DNA of 64,000 nt, from assembly GCA_945946655.1 (NCBI GenBank), contig CAMEWM010000003.1, positions 28,109 through 92,108 of the forward strand. Reading direction: 5' to 3'. Below, piece by piece: positions 1,566 through 40,087 of the stretch. Origin of the DNA: an uncultured Clostridium sp. (GTDB lineage Bacteria; Bacillota; Clostridia; TANB77; CAG-508). The notes under the pieces were generated by a model, which was given only the letters and a program-made list of their open reading frames with translations, was not told the DNA's origin and did not search any database. Each line of letters starts with the position of its first letter. The first letter of the stretch is position 1. The translations under genes and the position numbers were made by a program.

Positions 1566-1582
1566 AGGAGAAAGTAATAAAT

Positions 1583-2689: not shown

Positions 2690-2690
2690 T

Positions 2691-3872
2691 ATGAGTATCG
2701 CATCAAATGTAAAAAAAATATCTATTATACTATTAGCTGTATTTGTAATATTATTTGCTCTATCAGCGCCTTACAGTACGCATAATATTGATAAATTAGC
2801 ATACGTGATTGCTCTTGGTTTAGATGTCGGGCAAAACGATAAGCTAAGACTTACTATTCAACTTTCCAAGCCAGAAGGAAGTTCTGGAGGTTCTTCAGGT
2901 AGTTCTTACACTAATATAATTGACACAGTTGAATGTTCTTCTATAGATTCTGGCATAAGTTTGTTTAATAGCTATATTAGCAGAAGACTTAACTTATCTC
3001 ATTGCAAAGTAATTGTAATATCTGCCAACCTTGCTGCTACGCAGGGAGTATCAGATTATATATATACTCTACTTAATAATGTTGAAATGAGTCCTCATGC
3101 AAGTATTATAGTTAGTAAAACACCCGCGGATGAATTTTTAAATAGCTCCCAACCAGAACTTGAGGATTTAGCTTCCAGATATTATGAAGTTTCTCTTGCT
3201 TCCAATAAATATACAGGTTATACTTCAAATGTATCCTTAATACGATTCTTTTCTGACTGTGTAGATACATTTACGAATCCTGTGGCCATTCTCGGATCTA
3301 TTGGCGATATGCCTATTAAGTCAAATGATAACATTGAAAATATGGGACTTGCTATTTTTAAAAATGACAAACTAGTTGGCGAATTAAGTGCTCAAGAAAC
3401 AATTTGGCACATGATTGTCTCTAATCAATTGAAATCCTGTACTATAAGTATTCCTGACCCTCTCGGCGATACAGAAAGTATAGATTTAAATCTAAAACTC
3501 GACTGTGTTCCCAAAAAATCAGTTAACTTAATTAATGGAACTCCCCATATTTCTTGTAAAATAAAAATTAAGGCTCAAATTTTATCGGCTACTCAGCAAT
3601 CCACTTCTAATGAGACTAATTATTACAAAAAAGAAAACTTGCGATTAATAGAAACAACTTGTAATGAATATTTAGAAAAAAATATTAAAGATTATTTATA
3701 TAAAACGGCCAAGACCTACAATTCCGATATAGATGGCTTTGGCAAGTATGCCGTAAAATATTTTTCAACCACTCAAGCTTGGGAAGAATATAATTGGCTT
3801 GATAATTATCATAATAGTATATTTAATGTAGAAGTTGACAGTACAATAAAGTCTGGATACAGCTTTTTATAA
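2691..3872 (+). CDS. Spore germination protein, GerAC/GerKC-family C subunit (atypical: no lipobox cysteine at the N-terminus)
   Basis: Third gene of the ger operon. It has an N-terminal hydrophobic signal or anchor segment and GerAC-like conserved blocks (VIALGLD...KLRLTIQ). AAGGAGG at 2673-2679 is followed by ATG at 2691. No Cys after the signal segment. Confidence 0.75.
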   Translation: MSIASNVKKISIILLAVFVILFALSAPYSTHNIDKLAYVIALGLDVGQNDKLRLTIQLSKPEGSSGGSSGSSYTNIIDTVECSSIDSGISLFNSYISRRLNLSHCKVIVISANLAATQGVSDYIYTLLNNVEMSPHASIIVSKTPADEFLNSSQPELEDLASRYYEVSLASNKYTGYTSNVSLIRFFSDCVDTFTNPVAILGSIGDMPIKSNDNIENMGLAIFKNDKLVGELSAQETIWHMIVSNQLKSCTISIPDPLGDTESIDLNLKLDCVPKKSVNLINGTPHISCKIKIKAQILSATQQSTSNETNYYKKENLRLIETTCNEYLEKNIKDYLYKTAKTYNSDIDGFGKYAVKYFSTTQAWEEYNWLDNYHNSIFNVEVDSTIKSGYSFL

Positions 3873-3892
3873 AATTATAAATTCAATTTTAT

Positions 3893-3958
3893 AAAAAGAA
3901 TTACTTTTATTACATTTAGCATAGAACAAGCTAAATATAATAAAAGTAATTCTTTTTT
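3893..3958. terminator. Long inverted repeat (about 19-bp arms) acting as a bidirectional terminator between convergent gerC and ftsH
   Basis: aaaagaattacttttatta ... taataaaagtaattctttttt, a perfect inverted repeat flanked by A-run and T-run between two convergent stop codons. Confidence 0.6.
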
Positions 3959-3991
3959 CATATTTATTAAATTTCAATTTTAGTTTGAAGA

Positions 3992-5845
3992 TTATTCTTC
4001 AAATAGTTTTTCAAATTCTTCTGCTGATATCACTTCTTTTTCTATTAATAAAGCAGCTAATTCATGTAATTTGTCTATATGCTTTACTAATATTGATTGG
4101 GCTTTTGAATATGCATCGTCTATTAATGTTTTTACTTCTTTTCCTATTGCATTTTCCATGCTTTCACCAAACAATTGCATTTGATAAGGATCTTTCTCTA
4201 GGTTTATGCTTAATGGTCCTATATTATCGCTCATGCCATAGATAGTTACCATATTTTTGGCAATATCTGTTGCAACTTCTAAATCGTTACTTGCTCCTGT
4301 TGATATATCATTTAGTATTAATTTTTCAGAAGCTCTTCCACCCAATAAAGCAACTAATTTTTCTAGCATTTCTGTTTTCGATATATAGTATTTGTCTTCA
4401 TTTGTTTTATACATTGTATATCCTCCGGCAATTCCTCTAGGAATTATCGATACTTCTTTAATATCCTTTTGAGTTTCTAAAAATCTGCTTACTATAGCAT
4501 GTCCTGCCTCATGATATGCTGTTAATCTTTTATCTTTATCAGACATTATTCTACTATGCTTTTCCACTCCAACTGTAACTTTCTTTAGAGCATCATCTAT
4601 ATCTTTATTTGTTATAGCTTTTTCTTTGTTAATTGTTGCAATTATTGCTGCTTCATTTAAGATATTTTCCAACTCTGCACCAGTAAAACCTGCTGTATCT
4701 CCTGCAATTGCTTTTAAGTCTACATCATCCGCTAACTTTTTATCTTTTGAATGTATTTTTAATATTGCCTCTCTTCCATTCATATCTGGAAGTCCTATCG
4801 TTATTTGTCTATCAAATCTTCCTGGTCTTAATAGGGCTTTATCCAACATATCTGGTCTATTGGTAGCAGCTAATAATATAACAGTATGTTCTGAATCAAA
4901 TCCGTCCATTTCTACTAGTAACTGATTTAAAGTTTGATTATTATCTGCATCAGCAGCAGTAGAACCATCTGTTCTCTTTGAACCTATAGCATCTATCTCA
5001 TCTATAAAAATGATTGATGGAGACATCTTTTTAGCTTTGTCAAATAACTTTCTTACTCTTGAAGCACCAAGTCCAGCAAACATTTCTGTAAATTCTGAAC
5101 CACTCATTGATATAAATGGCACATCTGCCTCTCCTGCTATCGCTTTTGCAATTAATGTTTTACCCGTTCCAGGTTGTCCACATAGTAAAACTCCCTTTGG
5201 AATTTTGGCTCCCATTTTATAAAACTCTTCTGGATTTTTCAAGAAATTAACAATTTCTATCATTTCTTGTTTTTCTTCATCTAGTCCTGCTACATCATCA
5301 AATGTTGTTTTTACATTTTCCTCATCTGCTTCATATACTTTTCCTTTATCTCCAAGTCCCTGCATTTGTATTAATAAAACAAATAGTACTACCATTAAAA
5401 TTGTTGGTAATATGGTAAATGCTTTATCTGCAATAGTTAAAAATATGTTTGGTTTTTCTTGAATTAATTCTATTGCATTACCCTCTTGCACTTTTTCCTG
5501 TACTAGTTCAATAAAAGCTTGCGTACTTGGTACAATACCTGTTCTAGGCTCTTTCTCTCCTTTTAGTGTAACTTTCACAGTGGTACTACCAACTGTCATT
5601 TTTATTTTTTCCACATTGCCATCATCTATTTGTTTAATCAAATTTGTATAAGAAATTTCATCTTCTCCAATTGTATCTTCATCTTCTTTTGGTTTCACTA
5701 TAGCAAATATTATGCTTCCAGCTAAGACTACAGTAAGCAAAGCTATTAATATCCATAATATAATTTTTTTAGATTTCTCTTCGTCTTTCTTATTTTTTCT
5801 TTTTTTGTCGTCTTTTTCTTTGTCTTTCAATATTTTACCCTCCAA
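3992..5845 (-). CDS. ftsH: ATP-dependent zinc metalloprotease FtsH
   Basis: 617 aa. N-terminal TM, periplasmic segment and second TM. AAA+ Walker A (GQPGTGKT), Walker B (IIFIDEID) and second region of homology. M41 zinc site HEAGHAIV near the C-terminus. Confidence 0.95.
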   Translation of the reverse strand: MEGKILKDKEKDDKKRKNKKDEEKSKKIILWILIALLTVVLAGSIIFAIVKPKEDEDTIGEDEISYTNLIKQIDDGNVEKIKMTVGSTTVKVTLKGEKEPRTGIVPSTQAFIELVQEKVQEGNAIELIQEKPNIFLTIADKAFTILPTILMVVLFVLLIQMQGLGDKGKVYEADEENVKTTFDDVAGLDEEKQEMIEIVNFLKNPEEFYKMGAKIPKGVLLCGQPGTGKTLIAKAIAGEADVPFISMSGSEFTEMFAGLGASRVRKLFDKAKKMSPSIIFIDEIDAIGSKRTDGSTAADADNNQTLNQLLVEMDGFDSEHTVILLAATNRPDMLDKALLRPGRFDRQITIGLPDMNGREAILKIHSKDKKLADDVDLKAIAGDTAGFTGAELENILNEAAIIATINKEKAITNKDIDDALKKVTVGVEKHSRIMSDKDKRLTAYHEAGHAIVSRFLETQKDIKEVSIIPRGIAGGYTMYKTNEDKYYISKTEMLEKLVALLGGRASEKLILNDISTGASNDLEVATDIAKNMVTIYGMSDNIGPLSINLEKDPYQMQLFGESMENAIGKEVKTLIDDAYSKAQSILVKHIDKLHELAALLIEKEVISAEEFEKLFEE

Positions 5846-8400: not shown

Positions 8401-11028
8401 TTAAGCGTCATTAACTATATCTCCTGGTCTGTCAGGATCCTCTATTTCATTATCTTTTATCTCATTCTCGCCACTGCTAGTATCTTCCTTCTTTTTACTT
8501 ATAGTAATAGTTATATTGTCTCCTGCTGTCGCTTTGCTTCCTTCTTTCTTGCTTTGATTGATTACTGTTCCATCTTCTTTTGATGATTCTTCAGTCTCAA
8601 CTGTAACTGTTAAACCTAAATCTTTTAATATTTTTATTGCATCTTCTTTAGTTTTTCCAATAACATTTGGTACTGTAACTTCTTTTTTAGTATGTACATC
8701 ACATGTTTCGGTTGGTATATTATATTTACCACCATCATTTGTACGCCACAATGTTGTATCTTCTTTTTCTGGCTTTTTAGTATAAATCTTTTCTTCTGTA
8801 TTTGGGCAATTCTCTGTAGCTATTTTTCCAGTTTCTGTACATATTGTAAGTTTTGTATGTCCTTCACAATCTCCTGGTACAGTTCCTTTTACAAAATATT
8901 CTGTATATGTTCTACTACATGCTTCTGTAGCTACTTTACCAGAGTCTAAACAAATTGTAGCTGAAACCACATTACTTGGTTTTTCAAATTCTGCACTTTC
9001 TAGTCCTTTATGTATGTTATCCATTATTCTTACCCATATTCTGGCTGCTTTGTTACTAACATTTGCAGAACTTGTTGATAAGTCTTCTGGTATATCATAT
9101 CCATACCATGTTGCAGCAGTATAATAAGGTGTAAATCCGCAGAACCATCTATCTTTGTTATCTGTAGTTGTTCCTGTCTTTCCTCCTGTATCTTGCCCTG
9201 AAACTTTAGCATATGGAGCTGTTCCTCCAGCCCCCACAGGGCCTCTTAATATTGTTTGTTCAATATATGCATTTGCTTCAGACATTACTCTTGTTTTTTC
9301 TTGTACTGGCTCTAATACTATATTCCCAGATGCATCTTCCATTCTTGTGTAAAAAGTTGGTGTTATATAAACTCCTCCATTTGCTATTGCTGCATAAGCT
9401 CCGGCCATTTCAAGTGGAGATATACCATATGTTAAGCCTCCTAATACCATTGCTAAATTTTCATCATTGTGTTCTTTGTTTTCTTTAGCAGTTACTAATG
9501 ATGTTATTCCCATCTTTCTTAAAAATGCTATTGAATTACTTGGTCCTAATTCAGACATTATTTTTACTTCAGTCGTATTGGCTGATTTTTCTATTGCTTT
9601 TCTGACTGTAATCAATCCTAATCCAGAACTTGTTGGGTGATAATTGCCAAAGTCAGTTGATGATTCATCATATATAGTTGCTGCTGTTATTATTCCAGAT
9701 TCTAAAGCTGGAGCTATAGACGCTATTGGTTTCATTGAAGATCCCGGCTGTCTTACTGATTGAGTTGCTCTATTTTGTCCATTTGAGTCAACATCATCTC
9801 CAAGTCCTCCCATACATCCAACTACATAACCATTTTTGTGGTCTATAATTACCATTGCTGATTGTGTATGAGTATTAATTTTGTTTCCATCTTTTTTTTG
9901 TACACCAGCATATATGTAATCACCACTTCTATATACTTCTTCCATATTTGATTGTATATTAGAGTCTTGTGTTGTATATATTTTGTAGCCTCCACCTTCG
10001 ATCATAGTTTGAGCAATTTCTTTTGATACATCATTTTTCTCTGCATATTGTTGTATTACCTGATTTAACGCTGCTCTAGCTAAATATGACATAGACGAAT
10101 TTGTTGCCGTATTTCCTTTTTCAAATTTTAACCCTTCATCAACTTCTGCCTTTGCATTATTATATTCTTCTTCTGTAATCTTACCTAAGTCTTTCATCTC
10201 AGCTAAAACTGTTTTCGTTCTCTTCTTTATTAATTCACTGTTGTCTGATCCATTAAATGGATTATAGCTATTAGGAGCATGATTAATTCCTGCTAAAAAA
10301 GCACTTTCTGCTAAATCTAATTCTCCAACCGATTTATTAAAATAATATCTTGAAGCAAGTTCTACTCCATGCAAATTACCTTCTCCTCCTACAAATATTG
10401 TATTTAGATATAATTCTAATATTTGGTCTTTAGAAAGCATTTTTTCCACTTTATATGCTCTTGACATTTCTCTTATCTTTCTTTGAATTCCTGCTAATCC
10501 TGAATCGCTTTTATCATCCTTTAAGTTTTTTATTAATTGTTGAGTAATCGTACTTCCTCCATAAGAAGAATGTCCTCTATTTAAAATATATGTAACTGTA
10601 GCTCCAGCAGTTCTTTTTACATCTACACCCTTGTGTTGGTAAAATCTTTTATCTTCGATTGATATATATGCATCTTGCACAGTTTTTGGTATTTCACCTA
10701 GTGATACTGTTCTTCTTTTTTCCTCGCCAGAAACATTTGCAATTTCATTTCCATCTTTATCATATATAATTGTATCAATGCTTTTTAACGTCAAATCATC
10801 TTTACTCATTGACCAATCATCATTAGCAAATATTGCTACAACTGCACCAGCTCCAATAATAATTAATAGTATAATTAGAATAATACAAATCTTTAGAAAA
10901 AGAGCTAGTTTACGATGTCTTTTCCAAAACCCTTTTTTCTTTCCTTTTTCCTTTTTATCGTTTTCTGTATGTTTATTGTTATTTATATCATGTTTTGATT
11001 TAGCACGTTTATTTTCAGACTTACTCAT
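8401..11028 (-). CDS. Class A penicillin-binding protein (bifunctional transglycosylase/transpeptidase, PBP1A-like) with C-terminal PASTA-like, low-complexity tail
   Basis: 875 aa. N-terminal TM. GT51 motifs (EDKRFYQHKGVD, GGSTITQQL). Transpeptidase SxxK (SSMK) and KTGT motifs. Lys-rich N-terminus and acidic C-terminal tail. Confidence 0.9.
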   Translation of the reverse strand: MSKSENKRAKSKHDINNNKHTENDKKEKGKKKGFWKRHRKLALFLKICIILIILLIIIGAGAVVAIFANDDWSMSKDDLTLKSIDTIIYDKDGNEIANVSGEEKRRTVSLGEIPKTVQDAYISIEDKRFYQHKGVDVKRTAGATVTYILNRGHSSYGGSTITQQLIKNLKDDKSDSGLAGIQRKIREMSRAYKVEKMLSKDQILELYLNTIFVGGEGNLHGVELASRYYFNKSVGELDLAESAFLAGINHAPNSYNPFNGSDNSELIKKRTKTVLAEMKDLGKITEEEYNNAKAEVDEGLKFEKGNTATNSSMSYLARAALNQVIQQYAEKNDVSKEIAQTMIEGGGYKIYTTQDSNIQSNMEEVYRSGDYIYAGVQKKDGNKINTHTQSAMVIIDHKNGYVVGCMGGLGDDVDSNGQNRATQSVRQPGSSMKPIASIAPALESGIITAATIYDESSTDFGNYHPTSSGLGLITVRKAIEKSANTTEVKIMSELGPSNSIAFLRKMGITSLVTAKENKEHNDENLAMVLGGLTYGISPLEMAGAYAAIANGGVYITPTFYTRMEDASGNIVLEPVQEKTRVMSEANAYIEQTILRGPVGAGGTAPYAKVSGQDTGGKTGTTTDNKDRWFCGFTPYYTAATWYGYDIPEDLSTSSANVSNKAARIWVRIMDNIHKGLESAEFEKPSNVVSATICLDSGKVATEACSRTYTEYFVKGTVPGDCEGHTKLTICTETGKIATENCPNTEEKIYTKKPEKEDTTLWRTNDGGKYNIPTETCDVHTKKEVTVPNVIGKTKEDAIKILKDLGLTVTVETEESSKEDGTVINQSKKEGSKATAGDNITITISKKKEDTSSGENEIKDNEIEDPDRPGDIVNDA

Positions 11029-12897: not shown

Positions 12898-13569
12898 TTA
12901 TACATCCTCTTCTACTGTTAGTTTTGCATAATATTCAGGATTAAAATCTTTGTCATATTCTACATCTCCAAAGATTTCTGGCATTTGCTCTTTAAATAAT
13001 AGCAATAATGGAATTAAAACTTGTCTAATTGCTGGATGAACATGGTTTGTAGTCCTTAAACTCAAAATATGTTTCCATTCTCTAATATTTGCTGTCATTG
13101 TATATTCTGCAGCAGTCGAATGAGGTAAAACTTCTCTACACATATCGGTAGTCGCTCCTAACTCCTTCATTTTCATATAATGTTTTTCCATGTCTTCCAT
13201 CGCACTCTTCCATGCTTCATACACTTCTTTATCTTCAATATATACAGGATTTATAACTGCAATTTCATTGCCATATTTATCTTTATCATAACTACAATAT
13301 CTCGTTGATTCAACAGAAAAACTTGCAAATCTATGTCTTGTTAAATCCTTATATGACCCTATGTCACTATAAATTCTAACCGTAATCTTTTCATGTTCTA
13401 AAACTGACTCATGTCCTCTATTAAGGCAATTTTTTAATAAGTTTTTATAGCTATCTTCACTTATATTTCCTTCTGAACGATAGCAAGTTCTACATGCTCT
13501 TTCGATTCTTTTCATAATTTTTACGCCATCAAAATTTTCTACTTTAATCCATGGTTCTACTAGTCTCAT
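12898..13569 (-). CDS. thyX: FAD-dependent thymidylate synthase ThyX
   Basis: ThyX signature RHRxxxxxS present as TRHRFASFSVESTRY. 223 aa. Confidence 0.95.
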   Translation of the reverse strand: MRLVEPWIKVENFDGVKIMKRIERACRTCYRSEGNISEDSYKNLLKNCLNRGHESVLEHEKITVRIYSDIGSYKDLTRHRFASFSVESTRYCSYDKDKYGNEIAVINPVYIEDKEVYEAWKSAMEDMEKHYMKMKELGATTDMCREVLPHSTAAEYTMTANIREWKHILSLRTTNHVHPAIRQVLIPLLLLFKEQMPEIFGDVEYDKDFNPEYYAKLTVEEDV

Positions 13570-13741
13570 TTTTTAATTTCCTCCAAATATAATTTTCTCT
13601 ACTATATCAAACCCAACTTTATTTTTCAATAATTTTTCTATAATTAATATAATTAAATTTTATGTCTAAAATTCTTCAATAAAATAATAGAAAGCTCAAA
13701 AATTATAAAAATAATTTTTGAGCTCACAATTATACATTTCA

Positions 13742-14851
13742 TTATATTTTAATTATTTTTTCCCATGGTAAATCATCTTTTCCAAAGTGTCCATAATTTG
13801 TTGTTCTTTCATATATTGGTTCCTTTAAGTGTAAATATTCTATTATTCCATCTGGTGTCAAATCAAATTTAGTTTTTATTAAATGTACTAGTTCTTCTTC
13901 CGTTTTTTCACTAGTTCCAAAGGTATTTACATATATTGAAAGAGGTTCCTTCATTCCTATTGCATAAGCAACTTGTATTTCACACTTTTTGGCGTATCCA
14001 TTAGCGACTATATTTTTAGCAATATGGCGCAACATATAAGCTGCTGATCTGTCGACCTTACTTGCATCTTTTCCTGAAAAAGCTCCTCCTCCATGTTTTG
14101 CATATCCACCATATGTATCAACTATTATTTTTCTACCGGTTAAACCCGTATCACCTAAAGGACCACCTATTACAAATCTGCCTGTTGGATTTACATATAT
14201 ATTTGTATTTTTATCCATCATATTTTCCGGAACAACAGCCTTTATAACTTTTTCTATAACATCTTCTCTTATTTGTTCTAAAGAAGCTGTTTCTAAGTGC
14301 TGAGTAGAAACTAATATTGTTTCAATTCTTTTTGGTTTATCATTTTCGTATTCTACAGTTACTTGAGTTTTTCCATCTGGTCTTAAATATGGAACTATTC
14401 CTTCTTTTCTAACTTGAGTTAATCTCTTTGCTAGTTTATGTGCCATATCTATTGCATAAGGCATATAGTTTGGTGTTTCATCACAAGCATATCCAAACAT
14501 TATACCTTGATCTCCAGCGCCTCCAACATCAACGCCAAGAGCTATATCTGGGCTTTGCTTTGTTATATCAGCATTTATTTTGCACGTTCTATAATCAATG
14601 TCCGTTTTCTCGTTGTCATAGCCTATTTCTTTTAATTTTTCTCTTACTATTTCTCCTAATTTAATTCTTGCAGTAGATGTTATTTGTCCTGCTATCGTAA
14701 TGGTATTGCTTGATACAAATGTCTCTATTGCGACCCTTGAATTTGGATCTTGTCTTAGACATTCATCTAATATTGTATCAGATATGTTGTCACATACTTT
14801 ATCTGGATGTCCTTCTGTAACACTTTCTGATGTAAAATAATAATTTTTCAT
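13742..14851 (-). CDS. metK: S-adenosylmethionine synthetase
   Basis: N-terminal [16 protein letters not shown] and GGGAFSGKD motifs diagnostic of MetK. Confidence 0.95.
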
Positions 14852-14956
14852 TTTTTCCTCTTTCTTGTGGCATTTATATTTTATTTTATTATTATACTAT
14901 AATATAAGTATTTTTTCCATATTTTTATCATTTTTCTTATTATTAGCATTAAAATT

Positions 14957-16180
14957 TTAGTCTTTAAGCCTAATTAATTTATTTATATTCATTTTTCCTG
15001 CTCTTGTCACCATGTTATATCCATATTTATCTTTCAATTCATCCATTATGTCATCGACTTTCCTTTGTTTCTCTTTTTCTTTATTTTTGTCTGTAAATAA
15101 AGAAATCTGCATTTCTTCTTTGTCTATTAAATTATCAACTCTAACTCCTAATAGTCTTATCTGTTTGTTTGATAATGAGTTATATAATGTTTCTAACAGC
15201 TCTTTAGCTTCTCTATATATGTACTTTGTGCTATCTGTTCCGTCTGCTAGTTTTTTTTGATGAGTATAAACATCAAATGTATTGGTTTTTATCTGAACAT
15301 TTACTACATTGGTTAGCATATTTTGCTTTCTTAATCTATAAGAAACTTGTTCACAAAGAGCCAATAATACTTCATTTAGTTTTACTATATCCGCAACATC
15401 TTGTGGCATTGTAACTGAATTACCTATTCCTTTTGGTTTATCATCATTCACTTGTACTGGACTATTATCTATACCATTTGCATATTCCCATATTGTTTTA
15501 CCTAGCTTTCCAAAACGTTTTATTATGTCTTGCTTATCTCTATGTGCTAAATCTCCAATTGTTTTTATCCCTATTTTTTGTAATTTTGGAATTGTTTTTT
15601 TACCAACCATTAGTAAATCTGATATTGGCAATATCCACATTTTTGTTGGAATTTCATATTCATATAATGTATGTATTTTGTCTGGCTTTTCAAAATCTGA
15701 TGCCATTTTTGCTAATAATTTATTATGAGCTATGCCAATATTTACTGTAAATCCTAGTTTTTCTTTTATTTCAGTACTTATTTGTTTTGCTTTATCTTCT
15801 ATTGTTTCATTTTTTAATAAAAAATGAGTCAAGTCTAATGAGCACTCATCTATTGATAATTGTTCTATTTGATCCGTATATTTTTTAAAGATTTCTATCA
15901 TTCTATTTGAATATCTTCTATAAATCGCAAAGTCGCTTTCAAAGACTTGTACTTGTGGGCATTTGTTTCTTGCCATATACAACGGTTCCCCTGTTTTTAT
16001 TCCAAATTGCTTTGCCACTGGGCTTTTAGCCAAAACTATGCCTCTACGCTCAGCTTCATCTCCTCCTATCACAGCAGGAATTGTTCTAATATCAACTTGT
16101 TCTCCTTTTCTTAACCTTTCTACTGCTGTCCATGATAAAAAGGCATTATTTACATCAACATGTAAAATAAAACGTTCCAT
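14957..16180 (-). CDS. dinB: DNA polymerase IV (Y-family translesion polymerase)
   Basis: ILHVDVNNAF catalytic-Asp motif and Y-family palm, finger and little-finger layout. Likely start is the internal Met at 16180 (MERFILHVD); the track ORF extends to 16225. Confidence 0.9.
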   Translation of the reverse strand: MERFILHVDVNNAFLSWTAVERLRKGEQVDIRTIPAVIGGDEAERRGIVLAKSPVAKQFGIKTGEPLYMARNKCPQVQVFESDFAIYRRYSNRMIEIFKKYTDQIEQLSIDECSLDLTHFLLKNETIEDKAKQISTEIKEKLGFTVNIGIAHNKLLAKMASDFEKPDKIHTLYEYEIPTKMWILPISDLLMVGKKTIPKLQKIGIKTIGDLAHRDKQDIIKRFGKLGKTIWEYANGIDNSPVQVNDDKPKGIGNSVTMPQDVADIVKLNEVLLALCEQVSYRLRKQNMLTNVVNVQIKTNTFDVYTHQKKLADGTDSTKYIYREAKELLETLYNSLSNKQIRLLGVRVDNLIDKEEMQISLFTDKNKEKEKQRKVDDIMDELKDKYGYNMVTRAGKMNINKLIRLKD

Positions 16181-28503: not shown

Positions 28504-29658
28504 TTACTTAATAATAATGTTATTCTTTTTTAGTTCCCTTATCAATCCCTCAAAATTGTTTATATCGAATACATATCCCCTCATTCCACATTTTTCGCTT
28601 GCTATTATATTCTGCTCATTATCATCAATAAAAAAACTCTCTTCTGGATTTAATTTGAACTTTTCGAATAATCTATAATATATATTCGCATTTGGTTTCA
28701 TCATTTTCTCTTTCGCTGATATTAAAAATCCATCAAAATATTTGCCACATTCTGAATTTTTTACATATTCATATACTGATATATGTGTATTAGATAATGC
28801 ATAAACATTATAATTATTTTCTTTCAATTTTTTTATTAAGTTACAAATATCCATATTCATAGGCATATATTCATACCATGTGCTCATTATTTTTTCGAGC
28901 TTTTTCTGTAAGTTGCTTGGTAACTTTTCTTTAAATATTATCATAGCTTCTTTATAGTTGATAAGACCTTCATCTAATTTAAACCATTCTTCTGATTTAA
29001 ATATGACTTTTTTCAATATTTCTTTTTCTTCATCATTATCTGCAAATTTTGATACAATATAATCTTCATTCCAACCCAGTAAAACATTACCTAAATCAAA
29101 TATTATATTTTTTATTATATTGTTATTCCTCAATCCATACTTTTTTATATTTTCCTTTGTTGCAAATCCATTTGGCGTCTTTACCTTCTCTAAAAAAGTT
29201 ATTCCCTCTAAATGATCACATTCGTGTTGTATCAATCTTGAAAAAAATCCTTTTAAATTTTTTACTATTTTCTTTCCATCTTCATTATAATATGTTAATT
29301 CTATCTCTTTATACCTTTCAACTTTTCCTCGTATTTCTGGAACACTCATACATCCTTCATATTGGATATCTGTATCTTCTGATAATTTTCTCCAGCTTGG
29401 ATTAATCATTGCTGTTAGTGGTATATCTTCAGCATCATTATAAGTAATATTGTCTTTTGATGCGCCCACCACAATAATTTTCTTATTGACTCCTATCTGC
29501 GGTGCCGCTATTCCCAATCCAGTGCCAAATTGCAATGTCGTTTTTAAATCTTCAATTATACCTATAATCTCCGAATTTATATTTTCAATATCAACTTCTT
29601 CTGATATCTTACCTAGAGCAGGGTCTCCAACTTCCCTAACTTTTAAAACCTTTCCCAT
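28504..29658 (-). CDS. def: Fusion protein: N-terminal peptide deformylase plus C-terminal YihX-like HAD-IA phosphatase
   Basis: PDF motifs I to III (GLGIAAPQIG, EGCMSVPE, QHECDHLEG) in aa 1 to about 165. C-terminal roughly 200 aa carry HAD motifs closely resembling E. coli YihX (FDLGNVL, LSNT, K...FFIDDNEQNI). Single uninterrupted frame. Confidence 0.85.
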   Translation of the reverse strand: MGKVLKVREVGDPALGKISEEVDIENINSEIIGIIEDLKTTLQFGTGLGIAAPQIGVNKKIIVVGASKDNITYNDAEDIPLTAMINPSWRKLSEDTDIQYEGCMSVPEIRGKVERYKEIELTYYNEDGKKIVKNLKGFFSRLIQHECDHLEGITFLEKVKTPNGFATKENIKKYGLRNNNIIKNIIFDLGNVLLGWNEDYIVSKFADNDEEKEILKKVIFKSEEWFKLDEGLINYKEAMIIFKEKLPSNLQKKLEKIMSTWYEYMPMNMDICNLIKKLKENNYNVYALSNTHISVYEYVKNSECGKYFDGFLISAKEKMMKPNANIYYRLFEKFKLNPEESFFIDDNEQNIIASEKCGMRGYVFDINNFEGLIRELKKNNIIIK

Positions 29659-33214: not shown

Positions 33215-33320
33215 TTAGATCTCCTATATCATAAAAATATTTTTTACATTCTATCATATAACCATAAAAAAAGGAAGTGTCTTGTAAACACTCCAAATAA
33301 TTTTAATAGTAAGATTTCCT

Positions 33321-34712: not shown

Positions 34713-35765
34713 TTAAACAATAAATTTTCCTATTTTAGGAATTCTCGATAGAATGTATGATGGAATCGCACTTAATATATATATAATTATAGTGGCTATT
34801 GGAATAGATAATATTACTGGCCATTGTAATAAACTTATATTTAATTTACTCATAATTACTATATACATTGGATGTATTAAATATACTCCTAGCGAAAGTT
34901 TTGTCCATTTATTTATGATTACTTGAGTCTTCTCAGCAAATCTTTTTTTCAAAAATATTTGCTTTACCATACAAAATACAGCCATGGAATTTAAGCATAC
35001 TGGAGCAGACAAAGCATTATAAAAAACAGTTGGTAATTTATAATCAGTAATTTTTAAATATCTAGTCCCTAGTATAATGAAAATTACAGATAATATTCCC
35101 AAGACATATAATATGTACCTTGTATGCTTTTTAATATCATACTTACTTAAATAATAGCCTAATATGTAATATCCAACAAATCCTAAGAAGAAATCTATGT
35201 GGAAATTTGCATATATTATATCCAAATTAGAAAATATCGGTAGTTTTATTATCATATTTAAGCAACATTCAGATATAAACCAAATTATCAAGAAATACTC
35301 TATTATTTTTTTGTTCTCAGGTTTTGTAATTAGTTTAATTATTGGTGTTGCTAGGTACAGACCAATTAACATATATAAATACCATAAATGGTAATGCCCA
35401 TTTATAAAACTCATAATAAAATACTTTGTACTAATGTCCGGTGTTAATAAAGCTCTATCCAATATTGCATAAAAAGCAGACCAGATTACTAGCATAATCA
35501 TTACTCTTTTTATATATTTCTTAAATATTTTCGATATTTTAATTTCTTTTTCTTCGGGAAGAAGTAACATGCCTGTTACCATTACAAATATTGGAACTCC
35601 CCACCTGACAATCGAGTCATATATATTTATAATATTCCATTCTTTACTAGTTGCATCTATCATATACCAATCTATCGCTGATACATGTAATAACACTACT
35701 GCTATGCTTGCAACAATTTTAAGTATATTTGCGTATAGTATTTTTTCTCCATTTTTTTCTTCCAT
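34713..35765 (-). CDS. Acyltransferase family 3 integral membrane protein (OatA/WecH-like, no SGNH domain)
   Basis: 350 aa with about 10 TM. N-terminal conserved His in the LLHVS context, typical of acyltransferase-3 O-acyltransferases. Confidence 0.85.
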   Translation of the reverse strand: MEEKNGEKILYANILKIVASIAVVLLHVSAIDWYMIDATSKEWNIINIYDSIVRWGVPIFVMVTGMLLLPEEKEIKISKIFKKYIKRVMIMLVIWSAFYAILDRALLTPDISTKYFIMSFINGHYHLWYLYMLIGLYLATPIIKLITKPENKKIIEYFLIIWFISECCLNMIIKLPIFSNLDIIYANFHIDFFLGFVGYYILGYYLSKYDIKKHTRYILYVLGILSVIFIILGTRYLKITDYKLPTVFYNALSAPVCLNSMAVFCMVKQIFLKKRFAEKTQVIINKWTKLSLGVYLIHPMYIVIMSKLNISLLQWPVILSIPIATIIIYILSAIPSYILSRIPKIGKFIV

Positions 35766-35777
35766 TACATTTCCTTT

Positions 35778-35942
35778 TAAATCTCATTGTTTATATCTTT
35801 TATTTTTTTATTTAATTCTTTTTCATCTTCTTTATTTTCCAATATTGTTTCTAGTACACCTAAGTCAAAGTCAGAAGAAATTTTCTTCAAATATTTTTCT
35901 CCTTCGTCTAGTCCTAAGTCTTTAAATGTCTTTTCTTTCATG
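35778..35942 (-). CDS. Small acidic protein, 54 aa (MKEKTFKDLGLDEGEKYLKKISSDFDLGVLETILENKEDEKELNKKIKDINNEI); below the ORF-track size cutoff
   Basis: Hand-translated. ATG at 35942 with AAAGGA about 9 nt upstream. It lies 24 nt after the stop of the 1280-aa gene and ends 13 nt before the acyltransferase start. No Cys. Confidence 0.35.
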
Positions 35943-35966
35943 TTTTGCCATCCTTTCTCTGCAAAG

Positions 35967-38900
35967 TTATTTAAAGTTTTCTATTAGCTGTTCTTCGCTT
36001 ATCTCTTTATTATTATATAGAAAATCTACTACTTTGTCCATTTTTTCTTTATTTTCTGTTATTATATTGATGACATCCTTAAAGCACTCTTCTAATATCT
36101 CATTAACCTCTTTTAATACATCTTGAGACAATTCTGTATCCTCATTTTCAATTTGTGCTAATCCAAATTTTGACATTCCATAACGTGTTACCATGTTTCT
36201 TGCAATTCTAGTTGCGTGTTCTAAGTCACTAGTATTTCCATTACAATATTCTCCTAAGTATACTTTTTCTGCTCCCATTCCAGCAAGCGATACTTTTATC
36301 ATATTTAGCAGTTCTGTTTTTGATTGAGTATAACCACTTGTTCCTTTATGAGCTACATACCCTAGCGTGCCAGTTCCTTCAGCATTTATTGTAATTTTCT
36401 TTATTCCAGGTTCTTTAAATAGTATCAATCTTAAAATTGCATGCCCCACTTCATGTATAGCAGTATTTTTCTGTGCCTCTTCAGTTATCTTGCTTGGATC
36501 AATCATTGATTGTCCTCTAAAAATACATGAAGTCATCTCTTGTATAGTTGGAATGTCTTGCTGCTTTATAGTAATAATATCATCTGAATTATTTTTTGCA
36601 TGTTTCATTAATATTTCTTGTAGTAACTTATCAACAAATCTACCATTTCCTATATTATCAACGTTGCAAAAATATTTTATTACTTTTTTCACGTCTTCTT
36701 TTGCACTTTCTTCTATTTTCATTCCTGTATTTTCAATCTTTTTATACAGAATAGATTCTAATTCACTATCGTTATAATCGGGGAAGTCAAATGTATAACC
36801 TATTCTCGAAGCTATTCCTGGGTTACTATCTACAAAATCCTTCATCTCTTTTTTGTATCCTGCAAAGATTACTACAAATTCTCCCTTATGATCTTCCATT
36901 GCCTTTATTAATGTTGCTATTGCTTCTGCACCAAAATCATATTGTGCTCCTTTCCCTTGAGTAAGGCTATAAGCCTCATCAATGAACAATACTCCTCCCA
37001 TTGCTTTTTCAATTACTTCTGACGTTTTCGGTGCTGTCTGCCCAACATATCCTGCTATTAAATCTTTTCTTTCTACTTCTATCAACTTGTTTTCATGTAT
37101 TATTCCTAAGTCGAATAACATCTTAGCCATTATTCTTGCTATGGTTGTTTTTCCTGTTCCAGGATTTCCTGTAAACACCATATGCATATTCTGTGCTGCT
37201 ATATCTATTTCATAGTTTTGAGCCTTCTTTAAAAATCTTACATATGATTCAAAATCTTTAATTTTTTTCTTTAGATCTTCTAACCCTATAACATTATTCA
37301 GTAATTTATCTACTTCAGTTGCATCTTGAACGTCATTATTGGTTAGCTCTTCTATTGTTGGTATGTCAGCTTCACTAATAGATGTTATTTTTTCATTTTC
37401 ATTCTTAGAATGTTTCATAATTGTCTCTTGTACTAATTTATCTACAAATCTGCCATTTCCAAACATCTTTCTCTTTGAATAATATGAAAATATACCTAAT
37501 AATTTATTATCTAAGTTTTCAGATAACTCAAATCCCATATTTTTCATCTTGATTTTATATATTTCTAGAAGTTCTTCTTCTGTATAATCTGGAAAGTCAA
37601 ATGTATAGCCTATTCTTGATGCTATTCCTGAATTACTATCGATAAAAGTTTTCATTTCATCTTTATACCCTGCAAAAATTACTACAAATTCTCCTTTATG
37701 ATCTTCCATTGCCTTTATTAATGTCGCTATTGCTTCTGCACCAAAGTCTGAGGAACTTCCTTTTACTTGAGCAAGACTATAAGCTTCATCAATAAACAAT
37801 ACTCCTCCCATTGCTTTGTCTATTACTTCTGACGTTTTCGGTGCTGTCTGCCCAATATAAGGTGCTATTAAATCTTTTCTTTCTACTTCTATCAATTTAT
37901 TTTCACGTATCATACCTAAATCATATAGCATTTTTGCCATTATTCTTGCTATTGTCGTCTTGCCAGTTCCTGGATTTCCTGTAAACACCATATGCATATT
38001 TACATTCGCTAAATTTATTCCATTAGCCTTCGCTTTTACTTGGAAAAGCATATATTGTTCAAATTCTTTCAATTTGTTTTTTACGTTTGATAAACCAATT
38101 ATGTTCTTTAAACTTTCTTCCACAGATTCCTTTTTATACATATTATCTGGAAAAACAACTTTATTCTTTGAATTACTATAAATAGCAAGATATCTTGCCA
38201 ATTCATTATTAGAAAATGGTAAGAATTTCTCGTTAAAACTTACAAAGTCAATGAATTGTTTTTTATACTCATCTTTATTCTCTCTTAAGTTTCTAATTAG
38301 ACTATCTTTTAAAGAACTTGAATATACTTCAAACATTTCATCTATTGTTATTTTTGGGAATTTAAACCTATAGCTTTGATACACAAACTTCAATCTTGGG
38401 TCTAATCCTATTAAGTTATCTATTTCTTCCTCTGTTCCAACTAGTATTATATAGTGTTCCAAGTACAATGATGTTAGAATTTCTATTATATTTTCATATT
38501 GTTTTCTTTTTATCTCTTTGTATTCTCCAATTCCTATAGTGGCATCTTTATATAGTTTATAGTCATCAACAAACTCTTTTATACCTGTCAATACATATAA
38601 TTTACCTTCTTCTATATCAATACGTCTAACTTCCGAATAAGAATTTATAGGTTCATATGGTGGTCTTGCTGTAATTCCATAAGTTGTCCTTGCAGCTAAA
38701 TTTTGCATACTGATACTAATAGGATTCTCCGTCTTTGTTTTCCCATATCTATATAATACTTTTGATATCTTTTTAATAAATTCAGTCTTTCCAACACCTC
38801 TATCTCCTTCTATTGTACAATGTAAGTTTTGTTGAAATTTATTTGTCATGATTTCGATTAAACTATTTACATTCAGTATTTTCTCATTATATTTTAATAT

Positions 38901-39809
38901 CTCATCAAGTTGCTTTTTTCTGTCAAAATCAAGTTGTTCTATTTTATCTTCTATCATTTTTTTATTTTCAAGATTCATTCTTTCTTGATTCTGATGATAG
39001 TAATCTCTCTCTTCTTGTATTTTATCTTCTCTGCCGATTTTCTTGAGGTAATAAATATATCCAGCTATTAAACTTGGACAAGCTTCAAGTCTACAACTAT
39101 ATGTATTACAAAGATAAGTTGGATTTTTCGTCTCTCGTGTTAGATATGTATAATTTTTCCATTCCTTTTTTTTCAAGCCATTTATATCACATGCAATATT
39201 TCTAAAATCTAAACAACTCAATTGCGAATTAATAGTTATACGTTTTTCTTTATTCAATGAATTAGTTACCCATATCATTTCTTTTTTTACTAACTCATTA
39301 CAGAAATCAAATACTTTATCTGGGACTCTTTTTAATCCTTCGTCAAACTGCCAAACGAAGTCAAATTCGTCATAGACTTCATTGCTTTTTCTAAATTCTT
39401 CTCTATCTTTTAATTTATCATCAAATTCACCTTTTTGTTTTAAATATGCTATATATCCCATTATATTTTTAGGACATTTTTGGAATCTACACCCAATGCA
39501 AACATTATCTATATTGCCTTTTAATGTAAAAACGCTCTTTGTTTTTTGAAATATATTGTTTTCATCCAGAATACCTTTTTTATTCTCTACTGCGTCTAAC
39601 AAATCTTTTGTAGAATGCTTTTTACTACATAAATTTATTATATTCGATTCAATTAATACTTCTCCATTTTTACCTGCGCTTAATGATACTTCACCATTTG
39701 CTAATAAGTACTCACACAGCTTTAATGTGTCATCTGATACATATCTTAGTCCATTTAGTGCCTTATCTTCAAAATTAATGTTTTTATTAGTTTCATTCAT
39801 CTCTCCCAT
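35967..39809 (-). CDS. Large cytosolic multi-ATPase/protease: N-terminal duplicated Cys-motif domain, P-loop NTPase, two tandem CbbX/SpoVK-type AAA+ modules, C-terminal FtsH-like (M41) HExxH peptidase domain
   Basis: 1280 aa, no TM. Cys motifs CIGCRFQKCP...GYIAYLKQKG and CNTYSCRLEACP...GYIYYLKKIG. Walker A GDRGVGKT. Two copies of MHMVFTGNPGTGKTTIARIMAKML with Walker B VLFIDEAYSL and arginine-finger region. C-terminal IHEVGHAI with downstream E/D ligand (LEHATRIARNMV), resembling FtsH HEAGHA. Confidence 0.85.
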   Translation of the reverse strand: MGEMNETNKNINFEDKALNGLRYVSDDTLKLCEYLLANGEVSLSAGKNGEVLIESNIINLCSKKHSTKDLLDAVENKKGILDENNIFQKTKSVFTLKGNIDNVCIGCRFQKCPKNIMGYIAYLKQKGEFDDKLKDREEFRKSNEVYDEFDFVWQFDEGLKRVPDKVFDFCNELVKKEMIWVTNSLNKEKRITINSQLSCLDFRNIACDINGLKKKEWKNYTYLTRETKNPTYLCNTYSCRLEACPSLIAGYIYYLKKIGREDKIQEERDYYHQNQERMNLENKKMIEDKIEQLDFDRKKQLDEILKYNEKILNVNSLIEIMTNKFQQNLHCTIEGDRGVGKTEFIKKISKVLYRYGKTKTENPISISMQNLAARTTYGITARPPYEPINSYSEVRRIDIEEGKLYVLTGIKEFVDDYKLYKDATIGIGEYKEIKRKQYENIIEILTSLYLEHYIILVGTEEEIDNLIGLDPRLKFVYQSYRFKFPKITIDEMFEVYSSSLKDSLIRNLRENKDEYKKQFIDFVSFNEKFLPFSNNELARYLAIYSNSKNKVVFPDNMYKKESVEESLKNIIGLSNVKNKLKEFEQYMLFQVKAKANGINLANVNMHMVFTGNPGTGKTTIARIMAKMLYDLGMIRENKLIEVERKDLIAPYIGQTAPKTSEVIDKAMGGVLFIDEAYSLAQVKGSSSDFGAEAIATLIKAMEDHKGEFVVIFAGYKDEMKTFIDSNSGIASRIGYTFDFPDYTEEELLEIYKIKMKNMGFELSENLDNKLLGIFSYYSKRKMFGNGRFVDKLVQETIMKHSKNENEKITSISEADIPTIEELTNNDVQDATEVDKLLNNVIGLEDLKKKIKDFESYVRFLKKAQNYEIDIAAQNMHMVFTGNPGTGKTTIARIMAKMLFDLGIIHENKLIEVERKDLIAGYVGQTAPKTSEVIEKAMGGVLFIDEAYSLTQGKGAQYDFGAEAIATLIKAMEDHKGEFVVIFAGYKKEMKDFVDSNPGIASRIGYTFDFPDYNDSELESILYKKIENTGMKIEESAKEDVKKVIKYFCNVDNIGNGRFVDKLLQEILMKHAKNNSDDIITIKQQDIPTIQEMTSCIFRGQSMIDPSKITEEAQKNTAIHEVGHAILRLILFKEPGIKKITINAEGTGTLGYVAHKGTSGYTQSKTELLNMIKVSLAGMGAEKVYLGEYCNGNTSDLEHATRIARNMVTRYGMSKFGLAQIENEDTELSQDVLKEVNEILEECFKDVINIITENKEKMDKVVDFLYNNKEISEEQLIENFK
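36782..38000. repeat. Intragenic tandem duplication (two roughly 410-bp, highly similar segments with 810-bp period) encoding the two CbbX-type AAA+ modules
   Basis: 36782-37190 and 37591-38000 share long identical runs (e.g. actacaaattctcc[c/t]ttatgatcttccattgcctttattaatgt[t/c]gctattgcttctgcaccaaa; ttcctgtaaacaccatatgcatatt). Confidence 0.8.
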
Positions 39810-39969
39810 ATTTTCTTACGTTCCTTTCCATATTTACATATAGTATAACATAATGAATAATTATTTGAAAGATTATGCCAGTACAAATTTTTTTAATAAT
39901 TTTTGAATTTCTATTGACAATAAAAGTATAAATGTGCTAATATAAATAAGTGTTAACAATAATGCACAT

Positions 39970-40053
39970 GCGGATGTGGCGGAATTGGCAGACGCGCTGG
40001 TCTTAGGAACCAGTACCAACGGTGTGGAGGTTCAAGTCCTCTCATCCGCACCA
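39970..40053 (+). tRNA. tRNA-Leu (anticodon TAG), type II with long variable arm
   Basis: Acceptor gcggatg/catccgc, anticodon stem ctggt/accag, loop cTTAGGa, long variable arm, T-arm ggagg-ttcaagt-cctct, CCA encoded. Confidence 0.9.
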
Positions 40054-40087
40054 AAAGACAGGTTATTAAAACCTGTCTTTTTTTTTC
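40054..40087 (+). terminator. Rho-independent terminator after tRNA-Leu
   Basis: aaagacaggt-ttattaaa-acctgtcttt followed by T9. Confidence 0.75.

Follow-up and report, generated by a model that had tools for sequence, protein, structure and literature searches.

Our analysis of the window, the whole 64,000-nucleotide stretch of DNA, indicated that a 1280-amino-acid protein encoded on its minus strand is probably an FtsH-like ATP-dependent zinc metalloprotease of the cytosol that uses a different motor. From the N to the C terminus, the protein comprises two copies of a four-cysteine (Cys4) domain, a degenerate AAA+ module (D0), two intact AAA+ modules (D1 and D2), and an M41 peptidase domain. 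The gene, its domains, and its surroundings are as follows:

39842..39869, minus strand: sigma-70-type promoter-like site with an extended -10 element (TTCAAA, 16 nt, TG-n-TATACT), 5' of the 1280-aa gene (consensus scan)
35967..39809, minus strand: gene for the 1280-aa soluble multi-AAA+/M41 protein (ORF and translation; Pfam and NCBIfam domains)
39372..39770, minus strand: Cys4 domain copy 1, residues 14-146, with C61, C104, C107, and C112 invariant
38964..39371, minus strand: Cys4 domain copy 2, residues 147-282, with C199, C234, C239, and C244 (Cys columns invariant in alignment A7)
38130..38912, minus strand: D0, residues ~300-560, a degenerate AAA+-like module that includes GDRGVGKT (AF2 model; Foldseek)
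37320..38129, minus strand: D1, intact AAA+ module of the SpoVK/CbbX/EccA clade, residues 561-830 (NCBIfam; PDB sequence match)
36525..37319, minus strand: D2, second intact AAA+ module of the SpoVK/CbbX/EccA clade, residues 831-1095 (NCBIfam)
35970..36524, minus strand: C-terminal M41 zinc-peptidase domain, residues 1096-1280, with HEVGH (Pfam Peptidase_M41)
35777..35941, minus strand: 54-aa acidic ORF, pI 4.8, with an AGGA-type ribosome-binding site; lineage-specific neighbor (translation)
34713..35765, minus strand: Acyl_transf_3 membrane acyltransferase, 350 aa; accessory neighbor (Pfam PF01757)

The motifs that an earlier note had reported for the 1280-aa protein were all found in its translation, including the Cys motifs CIGCRFQKCPKNIMGYIAYLKQKG and CRLEACPSLIAGYIYYLKKIG, two occurrences each of VFTGNPGTGKTTIARI and VLFIDEAYSL, and single motifs GDRGVGKT, IHEVGHAI, and LEHATRIARNMV. 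The proposed union of soluble CbbX/SpoVK-type AAA+ modules with an M41 domain proved to be a real architecture in Pfam and NCBIfam, with Pfam recovering AAA in two stretches (5.5e-36) and AAA_lid_6 in two stretches, and with SpoVK, CbbX, and EccA as the top NCBIfam matches. As had also been claimed, the protein has no transmembrane (TM) segment, its maximal 19-residue Kyte-Doolittle mean being 1.39 and below threshold throughout, whereas the FtsH of the same window (3992-5845, minus strand) peaks at 2.98 with two segments; TM segments were likewise absent from the family members listed. Judged by sequence, the protein belongs to a real protein family. An exhaustive phmmer search with domain mapping identified 73 proteins with one to three such AAA modules and a C-terminal M41 domain, distributed over about 66 GTDB species genomes, mostly of gut and rumen Clostridia and of Coriobacteriia (Olsenella sp. 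An270, Adlercreutzia faecimuris, and Enterorhabdus sp. P55), with Olsenella sp. An270 (WP_087227353.1) and A. faecimuris (WP_242164485.1) as cultured representatives. A protein from metagenome assemblies (P0001) was 100% identical to the 1280-aa protein. A gene-fusion or assembly artefact was ruled out on the strength of some 66 independent genomes, isolates among them, that share the architecture. No published account of a SpoVK-type AAA+/M41 architecture was found in the open-access literature, and the RefSeq name of the two homologues checked is just "AAA family ATPase", in agreement with the suggestion that the family is undescribed.

The FtsH-like M41 C terminus was borne out with an intact peptidase site, as Peptidase_M41 (PF01434) matched residues 1108-1275 at 1.7e-29, its 103.5 bits being well above the cut-off (29.9). 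Residues 847-1274, spanning D2 and M41, were collinear with FtsH structures such as 2ce7 in a PDB sequence search. In a neighbor-joining tree of M41 domains, the family and the protein P0092 stood apart from FtsH-type domains, with a bootstrap for this split of only 4/40. P0092, which groups with the family in this tree, is a soluble classical-AAA/M41 protein. H84, E85, G87, H88, E146, and D160 were invariant across 27 diverse family members (alignment A4), and we take E146 and D160, from motif reading without structural superposition, to be the zinc-site residues of FtsH. This invariance of the later Glu and Asp, together with HExGH in 68/68 full-length family M41 domains, speaks against the protein being a pure chaperone or disaggregase whose M41 domain is a non-proteolytic oligomerization or scaffold module, like the plant FtsHi pseudo-proteases; pseudo-proteases typically lack HExGH and the later Glu and Asp residues. 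Although the SpoVK-EccA-like clade's characterized members are chaperones (PMC11513918), and FtsHi pseudo-proteases offer a precedent (PMC8197885), we consider a purely non-proteolytic role very improbable.

The motor of this predicted protease differs from that of FtsH. Two tandem CbbX/SpoVK-type AAA+ modules, as previously proposed, were evident when each module was scored alone, D1 reaching 256, 236, and 216 bits and D2 reaching 249, 225, and 215 bits against SpoVK, CbbX, and EccA, respectively, and when D1 was compared with PDB sequences (CbbX, 4.8e-53). No FtsH model reached 1e-8 on the isolated modules; only SpoVK, CbbX, EccA, and IteA did. D1 and D2 share 67% protein identity, and their DNA forms a direct repeat with 810-nt spacing and 87-88% identity. 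The Walker A, Walker B, and pore loop (Y-I-G) of D1 are invariant. Among 125 complete modules from the 73 proteins, Walker A was present in 125/125 and Walker B in 122/125, and the Ar-h-Gly pore loop was found in 108/125, the canonical match being missing in 17/125. The sensor-1 GY motif appears as AGY in both D1 and D2 (G714/Y715 and G984/Y985, at least 90% conserved; 120/125 family modules), and an Asn precedes the Arg finger in NSGIASR (D1) and NPGIASR (D2), with N-x-G...R in 121/125 modules. In this motif the Arg lies at N+6, and N+4 is not Arg, presumably as in CbbX. The sensor-2 Arg is kept within GNGRF in both modules (G1054, N1055, G1056, and R1057 invariant; GNGR in 119/125 modules). 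Judged from these motifs, D1 and D2 carry the signature that marks the SpoVK-EccA-like clade, namely, a sensor-1 Tyr, an Asn upstream of the Arg finger, and a sensor-2 Arg. This clade is sister to the AAA domains of FtsH and retains the sensor-2 arginine, which FtsH has usually lost (PMC11513918).

The AF2 model of residues 1-566 had a pLDDT of 85, and the top Foldseek PDB matches for the D0 fold were CbbX structures (3syk/3zuh; E 6e-6, 13-14% identity). The GDRGVGKT motif read earlier as an extra P-loop is indeed present, but it sits in this degenerate AAA+-like module, in which the family does not conserve the Walker A lysine, a DE Walker B is lacking, and the glycine G335 is invariant. The duplicated N-terminal Cys motif was confirmed as two four-cysteine copies derived from an internal duplication (hhalign of alignment A6 against A7; probability 99.3%, E 1.6e-20). 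The Cys4 domain, which is unclassified and possibly zinc-binding, had no Pfam match, its model gave nothing under E 0.3 in a Foldseek search of the PDB, and the Cys-repeat profile gave chance-level matches only against PDB sequences. It may resemble SWIM zinc fingers (ZSWIM8 and Shu2) in having a helix directly after the Cys cluster, with scores below significance, but the SWIM signature CxCxnCxH is absent, the pattern here being C...CxxCxxxxCP or C...CxxxxCxxxxCP.

In our proposed mechanism, which draws on homology, D1 and D2 would form stacked hexameric rings whose aromatic-hydrophobic-Gly pore loops could pull a substrate, once unfolded, into a ring made of the C-terminal M41 domains, which follow the final AAA lid just as they do in FtsH. 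The two Cys4 copies may select substrates or adaptors. A report on YME1L engineering describes the TM anchor as driving hexamerization of the catalytic domains (PMC5095350), and a soluble M41 enzyme would therefore need a substitute. D0, presumably non-catalytic, and the extra ring probably replace the hexamer-stabilizing membrane anchor of FtsH/YME1L. The 1280-aa protein would act as a stand-alone gene product.

The closest known counterpart is FtsH (MEROPS M41; TIGR01241), including mitochondrial YME1/AFG3L2, with which the protein shares a C-terminal M41 domain with HExGH and the later Glu and Asp, as well as an AAA+ module directly N-terminal to M41, the peptidase following right after the AAA lid. 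In contrast to FtsH, which has two TM helices, an extracytoplasmic (periplasmic) domain, and a single FtsH-type AAA module, the protein has neither helices nor such a domain, contains two active SpoVK/CbbX/EccA-clade modules and one degenerate module, and adds novel Cys-rich domains at its N terminus, about 300 residues in all; its whole-protein TIGR01241 score, 112.4 bits where the cut-off is 600, sets it apart from canonical FtsH. The inferred logic of stacked ATPase rings feeding a compartmentalized peptidase, with N-domains selecting the substrate, is that of ClpA/ClpC-ClpP and Cdc48/VAT-20S, but the protein described here carries its peptidase, of the M41 metallo type, as a covalent fusion, and its two rings would consist of SpoVK-type modules that are recently related, with 67% identity. 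Likeness to the SpoVK/CbbX/EccA clade lies in the GY, N-x-G-x-x-S-R, and GNGR signatures, in the top HMM and PDB matches, and in the variable N-terminal domains, a trait noted for the clade (PMC11513918). The family differs from it as a peptidase fusion, a 2024 PNAS analysis having found no peptidase association in the clade (PMC11513918), and in having one to three tandem modules that score below all three equivalog cut-offs. For CbbX (TIGR02880), the modules reach 236 and 225 bits, short of the 459.25 cut-off; no RuBisCO gene was present among the window ORFs scanned or the related loci examined, and neither a RuBisCO nor a T7SS context was seen in the window or those loci.

SpoVK (TIGR02881) is the top NCBIfam match, which would fit a sporulation-specific SpoVK-like remodeling or quality-control machine of the mother cell or forespore, a role that the earlier note had raised. 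The genome of the window carries genes for a GerA/GerB/GerC germination receptor, and one homologue lies close to yabP, yabQ, and divIC. However, the single modules score 256 and 249 bits against SpoVK, far under its equivalog cut-off (422.95), and the whole-protein 494 bits is the sum of two modules, so that the protein is not SpoVK proper. Unlike SpoVK, the family reaches beyond spore formers, as it also occurs in Coriobacteriia (Olsenella, Adlercreutzia, and Enterorhabdus), which, to our knowledge, do not sporulate. Further, the conserved upstream element is the sigma-70-type extended -10 promoter-like site, a consensus match only, whose two hexamers and TG are kept at the locus of the 72% homologue (L005); no sporulation gene was found among the conserved neighbors; and true SpoVK is found in sporulating Bacillota only (PMC11513918). 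A dedicated role in sporulation is thus unlikely.

A similar weighing applies to an anti-phage or conflict effector, namely, an IetAS-like ATPase-protease. A partial PADLOC match to IetA (82.8 bits) and an NCBIfam match to IteA (76 bits) would fit such an effector, but they reflect generic AAA similarity, the IteA model (NF042959) having a cut-off of 510. No IetS-like serine protease gene is adjacent, defense genes do not recur around the family, whose neighbors are housekeeping genes, and a scan of IMG/VR viral contigs gave one locus with a weak 26% match. The defense-system reading was rejected on the generic PADLOC matches and this single viral match, and we regard it as the most improbable of the alternatives.

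The genomic setting fits a protein that works on its own better than it fits a gene system. The three ORFs of 1280, 54, and 350 aa are present on one strand as reported, although the gaps given as 24 and 13 nt are actually 25 nt (1280-aa/54-aa) and 11 nt (54-aa/acyltransferase). Given these short gaps, the presence of ribosome-binding sites, and the lack of terminator-like sites in between, one could envisage a dedicated three-gene system in which the protease degrades or processes the 54-aa peptide, or the peptide acts as its adaptor or inhibitor, and the acyltransferase modifies a product; the terminator-free stretch, however, also takes in a housekeeping tRNA/rRNA methyltransferase gene. 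The acyltransferase itself is a full-length match to PF01757 (7.5e-34; 117.7 bits, cut-off 31; residues 10-334/350), and the 54-aa ORF had no Pfam, NCBIfam, or PADLOC match. The idea of a conserved cluster failed on synteny, as the 54-aa ORF was found in only 2/86 related loci and the acyltransferase in only 1/86. At the locus of the 91% homologue (L004), which has both, the 54-aa ORF is identical; the L005 locus keeps it with unchanged length and 69% identity, a point in favor of a functional link, but has a tRNA methyltransferase gene directly after it in place of the acyltransferase. No small ORF lies downstream of the gene at the loci of homologues with 50-64% identity, and clustering of the neighbors of family loci revealed no partner conserved family-wide. 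In a distant Coriobacteriia subclade, a small acidic ORF directly follows the stop codon of the family gene and precedes a gene for a YbjN-family chaperone-like protein, an arrangement reminiscent of the one here; homology of the 54-aa ORF to these small acidic proteins was rejected (hhalign probability 0.2%). Judged by gene order, both the acyltransferase and the 54-aa ORF are lineage-specific neighbors, the acyltransferase lying outside the protease system, and there is little likelihood of a dedicated three-gene system.

Bacterial ATP-dependent proteases comprise, in textbook accounts, ClpXP/ClpAP, HslUV, Lon, FtsH, and the proteasome, with FtsH as the membrane-anchored one. M41 and SpoVK-type AAA+ modules are each known, and what appears to be new is the coupling of an FtsH peptidase to a sister-clade AAA+ motor in a soluble protein. 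The SpoVK/CbbX/EccA clade is currently viewed as one of dedicated non-degradative chaperones. As a tentative and rather doubtful extension, the family could constitute a distinct, so far unrecognized kind of ATP-dependent protease in the cytosol, in which a multi-ring SpoVK-type unfoldase is covalently linked to M41 and the Cys4 domains serve in sensing or recognition, perhaps in response to metal or redox state, with small acidic partners and a YbjN-type chaperone possibly joining it in some lineages; it could also represent a surviving link, one that would show the SpoVK/CbbX/EccA "chaperone" clade to descend from a protease-coupled FtsH-like ancestor. If active, the enzyme would extend the range of mechanisms in the SpoVK/CbbX/EccA clade, provide a natural answer to the assembly of an M41 ring without a membrane anchor, and be an uncharacterized proteolytic regulator in Coriobacteriia and in a large number of uncultured Clostridia of the gut and rumen.

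The gene under study encodes a 1280-aa protein in which AAA+ modules of the SpoVK type precede an M41 zinc-peptidase domain, and it is followed by two smaller ORFs, each with an AGGA-type ribosome-binding site ahead of it:

35967-39809, minus strand: large ORF, 1280 aa
35777-35941, minus strand: small acidic ORF, 54 aa, pI 4.8
34713-35765, minus strand: acyltransferase ORF, 350 aa (Pfam Acyl_transf_3, 7.5e-34)

The domains of the large protein were assigned as follows:

Residues 14-282: tandem Cys4 domain pair, two copies of one domain
Residues ~300-560: D0, degenerate AAA+ module containing GDRGVGKT
Residues 561-830: D1, active-type AAA+ module
Residues 831-1095: D2, active-type AAA+ module
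Residues 1096-1280: M41 zinc-peptidase domain (Pfam Peptidase_M41 at 1108-1275, 1.7e-29)

All three ORFs, and every motif quoted for them in an earlier sequence-only note, were recovered in translation of the minus strand; the gaps, put there at 24 and 13 nt, measured 25 nt (large/54-aa) and 11 nt (54-aa/350-aa). The HMM searches that the note had called for matched AAA and AAA_lid_6 in two stretches each, besides Peptidase_M41, and the top NCBIfam models were SpoVK, CbbX, and EccA. Scored in isolation, D1/D2 reached 256/249 bits for SpoVK, 236/225 for CbbX, and 216/215 for EccA, with no FtsH model matching to 1e-8; because these per-module scores lie far under the cut-offs, the modules are not SpoVK, CbbX, or EccA equivalogs. 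Walker A, Walker B, and a Tyr-Ile/Val-Gly pore loop occur in each module, as do all three signatures distinguishing the SpoVK-EccA-like clade from FtsH, namely a sensor-1 GY, an Asn ahead of the Arg finger, and an Arg kept in sensor-2 (PMC11513918). D1 and D2 share 67% protein identity, and their cores form direct DNA repeats (36773-37190 and 37583-38000; spacing exactly 810 nt, identity 87-88%), a possible substrate for module gain/loss or gene conversion; this would agree with family proteins having one, two, or three complete AAA modules each. The fold of D0 is also AAA+ (top PDB matches CbbX, E 6e-6, 13-14% identity), and a D0-like module is common throughout the family. The extra P-loop suggested for GDRGVGKT is present as sequence, but its Walker A lysine varies across the family and D0 has no DE Walker B.

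The D2 and M41 domains are collinear, in a single stretch, with FtsH crystal structures (residues 847-1274 with 2ce7). The HExGH residues were invariant in a 27-member alignment, as were a downstream Glu and an Asp, which we take from the motif to be the FtsH zinc-site residues. No hydrophobic segment was detected in the 1280-aa protein by a 19-residue hydropathy scan (maximum, 1.39, versus 2.98 for the canonical FtsH at 3992-5845, which has two TM segments), in line with the soluble protein originally proposed. In a neighbor-joining tree, the M41 domains of the family and of P0092, a protein from the exhaustive search, grouped together and apart from FtsH-type M41 with a bootstrap of 4/40; mean identity was 39% inside this group and 31% to FtsH. 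The fusion of M41 to SpoVK-type AAA may be either ancient or a secondary capture. P0092 itself (683 aa) joins a classical FtsH/Cdc48-type AAA to M41 without a TM segment, and M41 proteins free of the membrane are therefore of at least two kinds. The relative P0012 (1588 aa, NCBI), which shows weak Cys-region matches and shares the D0 module, has three AAA modules of the SpoVK type but no M41, indicating that the peptidase was gained or lost within the lineage.

The duplicated Cys motif noted at the N terminus proved to be a pair of homologous domains (profile-profile comparison of the two halves: probability 99.3%, E 1.6e-20), each with four (nearly) invariant cysteines (C61/C104/C107/C112 and C199/C234/C239/C244). 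The AF2 model of the pair was confident (pLDDT, 89.8; pTM, 0.86), and the domain had zero Pfam matches; we regard it as an unclassified Cys4 domain that may be SWIM-like and may bind metal. The Cys domains are restricted to a subset of the family. A 772-aa protein, P0024 (NCBI/ENA/Logan, contigs up to 66 kb), starts with DUF6882 and carries the tandem pair C-terminally without ATPase or peptidase, which identifies the pair as a mobile module.

An exhaustive phmmer search of 1.84 billion representatives, with the M41 domain as the query, placed large proteins that end in an M41 domain above canonical FtsH-type proteins. Domain mapping of these and the whole-protein-search matches yielded 73 proteins in which M41 comes after SpoVK-type AAA modules, a recurrence that, with the domain matches, bears out the proposed joining of CbbX/SpoVK-type AAA+ to M41. 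Motif retention in these 73 proteins was as follows:

Full-length M41 with HExGH: 68/68
AAA modules with Walker A: 125/125
AAA modules with Walker B: 122/125
AAA modules with aromatic pore loop: 108/125
AAA modules with GY: 120/125
AAA modules with GNGR: 119/125

No TM segments were detected among the family members listed. The gene occurs in at least about 66 species in a scan of GTDB species genomes; among the matches listed, carriers were mainly uncultured gut or rumen Clostridia, Lachnospiraceae, Ruminococcus, and Oscillospiraceae, and the closest was 64% identical to the window protein, whose own species was not among them. Coriobacteriia carriers include the cultured Olsenella sp. An270, Enterorhabdus sp. 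P55, and Adlercreutzia faecimuris. A viral-contig scan gave one weak match (26% identity). Some genomes have two nearby copies: contig JAFXSQ010000005.1 of one Lachnospiraceae MAG bears two paralogues in adjacent stretches (L064 and L065), and locus L012 has a 1746-aa copy at 345-5585 and, at 9008-10741, another ORF (577 aa) that is shorter or N-terminally cut. No description of the architecture was found in the open-access literature, and the two homologues checked in RefSeq (WP_087227353.1 and WP_242164485.1) are named merely "AAA family ATPase"; within that scope, the view that this is not a described family, already annotated with a function, is supported.

The three-gene unit is not conserved. 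Across 86 related loci, tblastn recovered the 54-aa ORF only beside the 91% (L004) and 72% (L005) homologues, with 69% identity and equal length in L005, and the acyltransferase recurred only in L004. The small ORF of L005 runs directly into a tRNA/rRNA methyltransferase gene that in the window comes after the acyltransferase, which makes the latter an accessory insertion. Loci of 50-64% identity homologues had no 54-aa ORF, acyltransferase, or any downstream small ORF, and clustering of all neighbors within 4 kb revealed no family-wide partner gene. The 54-aa ORF had zero matches in Pfam, NCBIfam, and PADLOC. The idea of a small partner is kept alive by a Coriobacteriia subclade, in which a small acidic ORF (52-175 aa; conserved N- and C-terminal motifs DLLASLQxALGG and LRxCExxLN) overlaps the stop of the AAA-M41 gene or lies within about 15 nt, followed by a YbjN-family, T3SS-chaperone-like protein (143-181 aa; PF10722, 1.1e-12). 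This looks like a three-gene operon specific to the subclade, although homology between these acidic proteins and the 54-aa ORF was undetectable. The small ORF and YbjN-like regions are located at:

L037, 10785-11515
L042, 10767-11531
L056, 10816-11683

The same arrangement was found in L039, L047, L051, L055, L068, and L071.

The window (G+C, ~29%) contains the housekeeping genes of a spore former, among them a GerA/B/C operon, the pair of thioredoxin and thioredoxin reductase, and a fructose-bisphosphatase gene. The germinant-receptor operon (GerA/spore-permease/GerAC; 45-3872, plus strand) marks the host as an endospore former and adjoins the canonical FtsH gene (minus strand). Divergent from the large gene lies tRNA-Leu(UAG) (39970-40053, plus strand), whose promoter-like region (TTGACA-18-TAATAT) is near-invariant across L004 and L005; a strong hairpin immediately 3' of the tRNA gene (40053-40081) resembles a bidirectional terminator that the tRNA gene would share with the thioredoxin operon. 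A 384-aa ORF (28504-29658, minus strand) joins peptide deformylase (residues 5-161) to a HAD-family hydrolase (182-358), an apparently uncommon fusion. Locus L001 lists a 949-aa class-I aminoacyl-tRNA synthetase (13111-15960, minus strand) with a NUDIX match amid tRNA-synt_1 matches, an odd insertion. The first terminator-like site downstream of the large gene lies at 33274-33294, past the methyltransferase gene, making co-transcription with the downstream neighbors plausible; any such transcript would be shared equally with this housekeeping gene. A sporulation-specific role, as a SpoVK-like machine, is unlikely given that the family also occurs in Coriobacteriia and that the element upstream of the large gene, kept in L005, is a sigma-70-type extended -10 (TTCAAA, 16 nt, TGnTATACT), a modest argument from a consensus match.

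By sequence, the M41 site of the protein and two translocase-type AAA modules, pore loops included, are intact, and one AAA-like module is dead. The protein lacks a membrane anchor, its last AAA module and M41 are collinear in the manner of FtsH, and its genomic habit is stand-alone. We envisage a hexamer in which stacked D0/D1/D2 rings would sit above an M41 ring, with the Cys4 domains capturing substrates that would then be unfolded and fed to the peptidase chamber by threading. Since FtsH/YME1L catalytic domains rely on the TM anchor for hexamerization, according to PMC5095350, the extra rings likely replace it. The protein would work like FtsH, yet it departs from it in two defining features, the membrane anchor and the ATPase type. 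Within the SpoVK-EccA-like clade, PMC11513918 reports that it found no association with peptidases. We describe the family as a putative soluble, multi-ring, SpoVK-type AAA+ M41 protease family with unclassified N-terminal Cys4 domains, and it is an exception to the view that takes the SpoVK-EccA-like clade to be non-degradative chaperones (PMC11513918).
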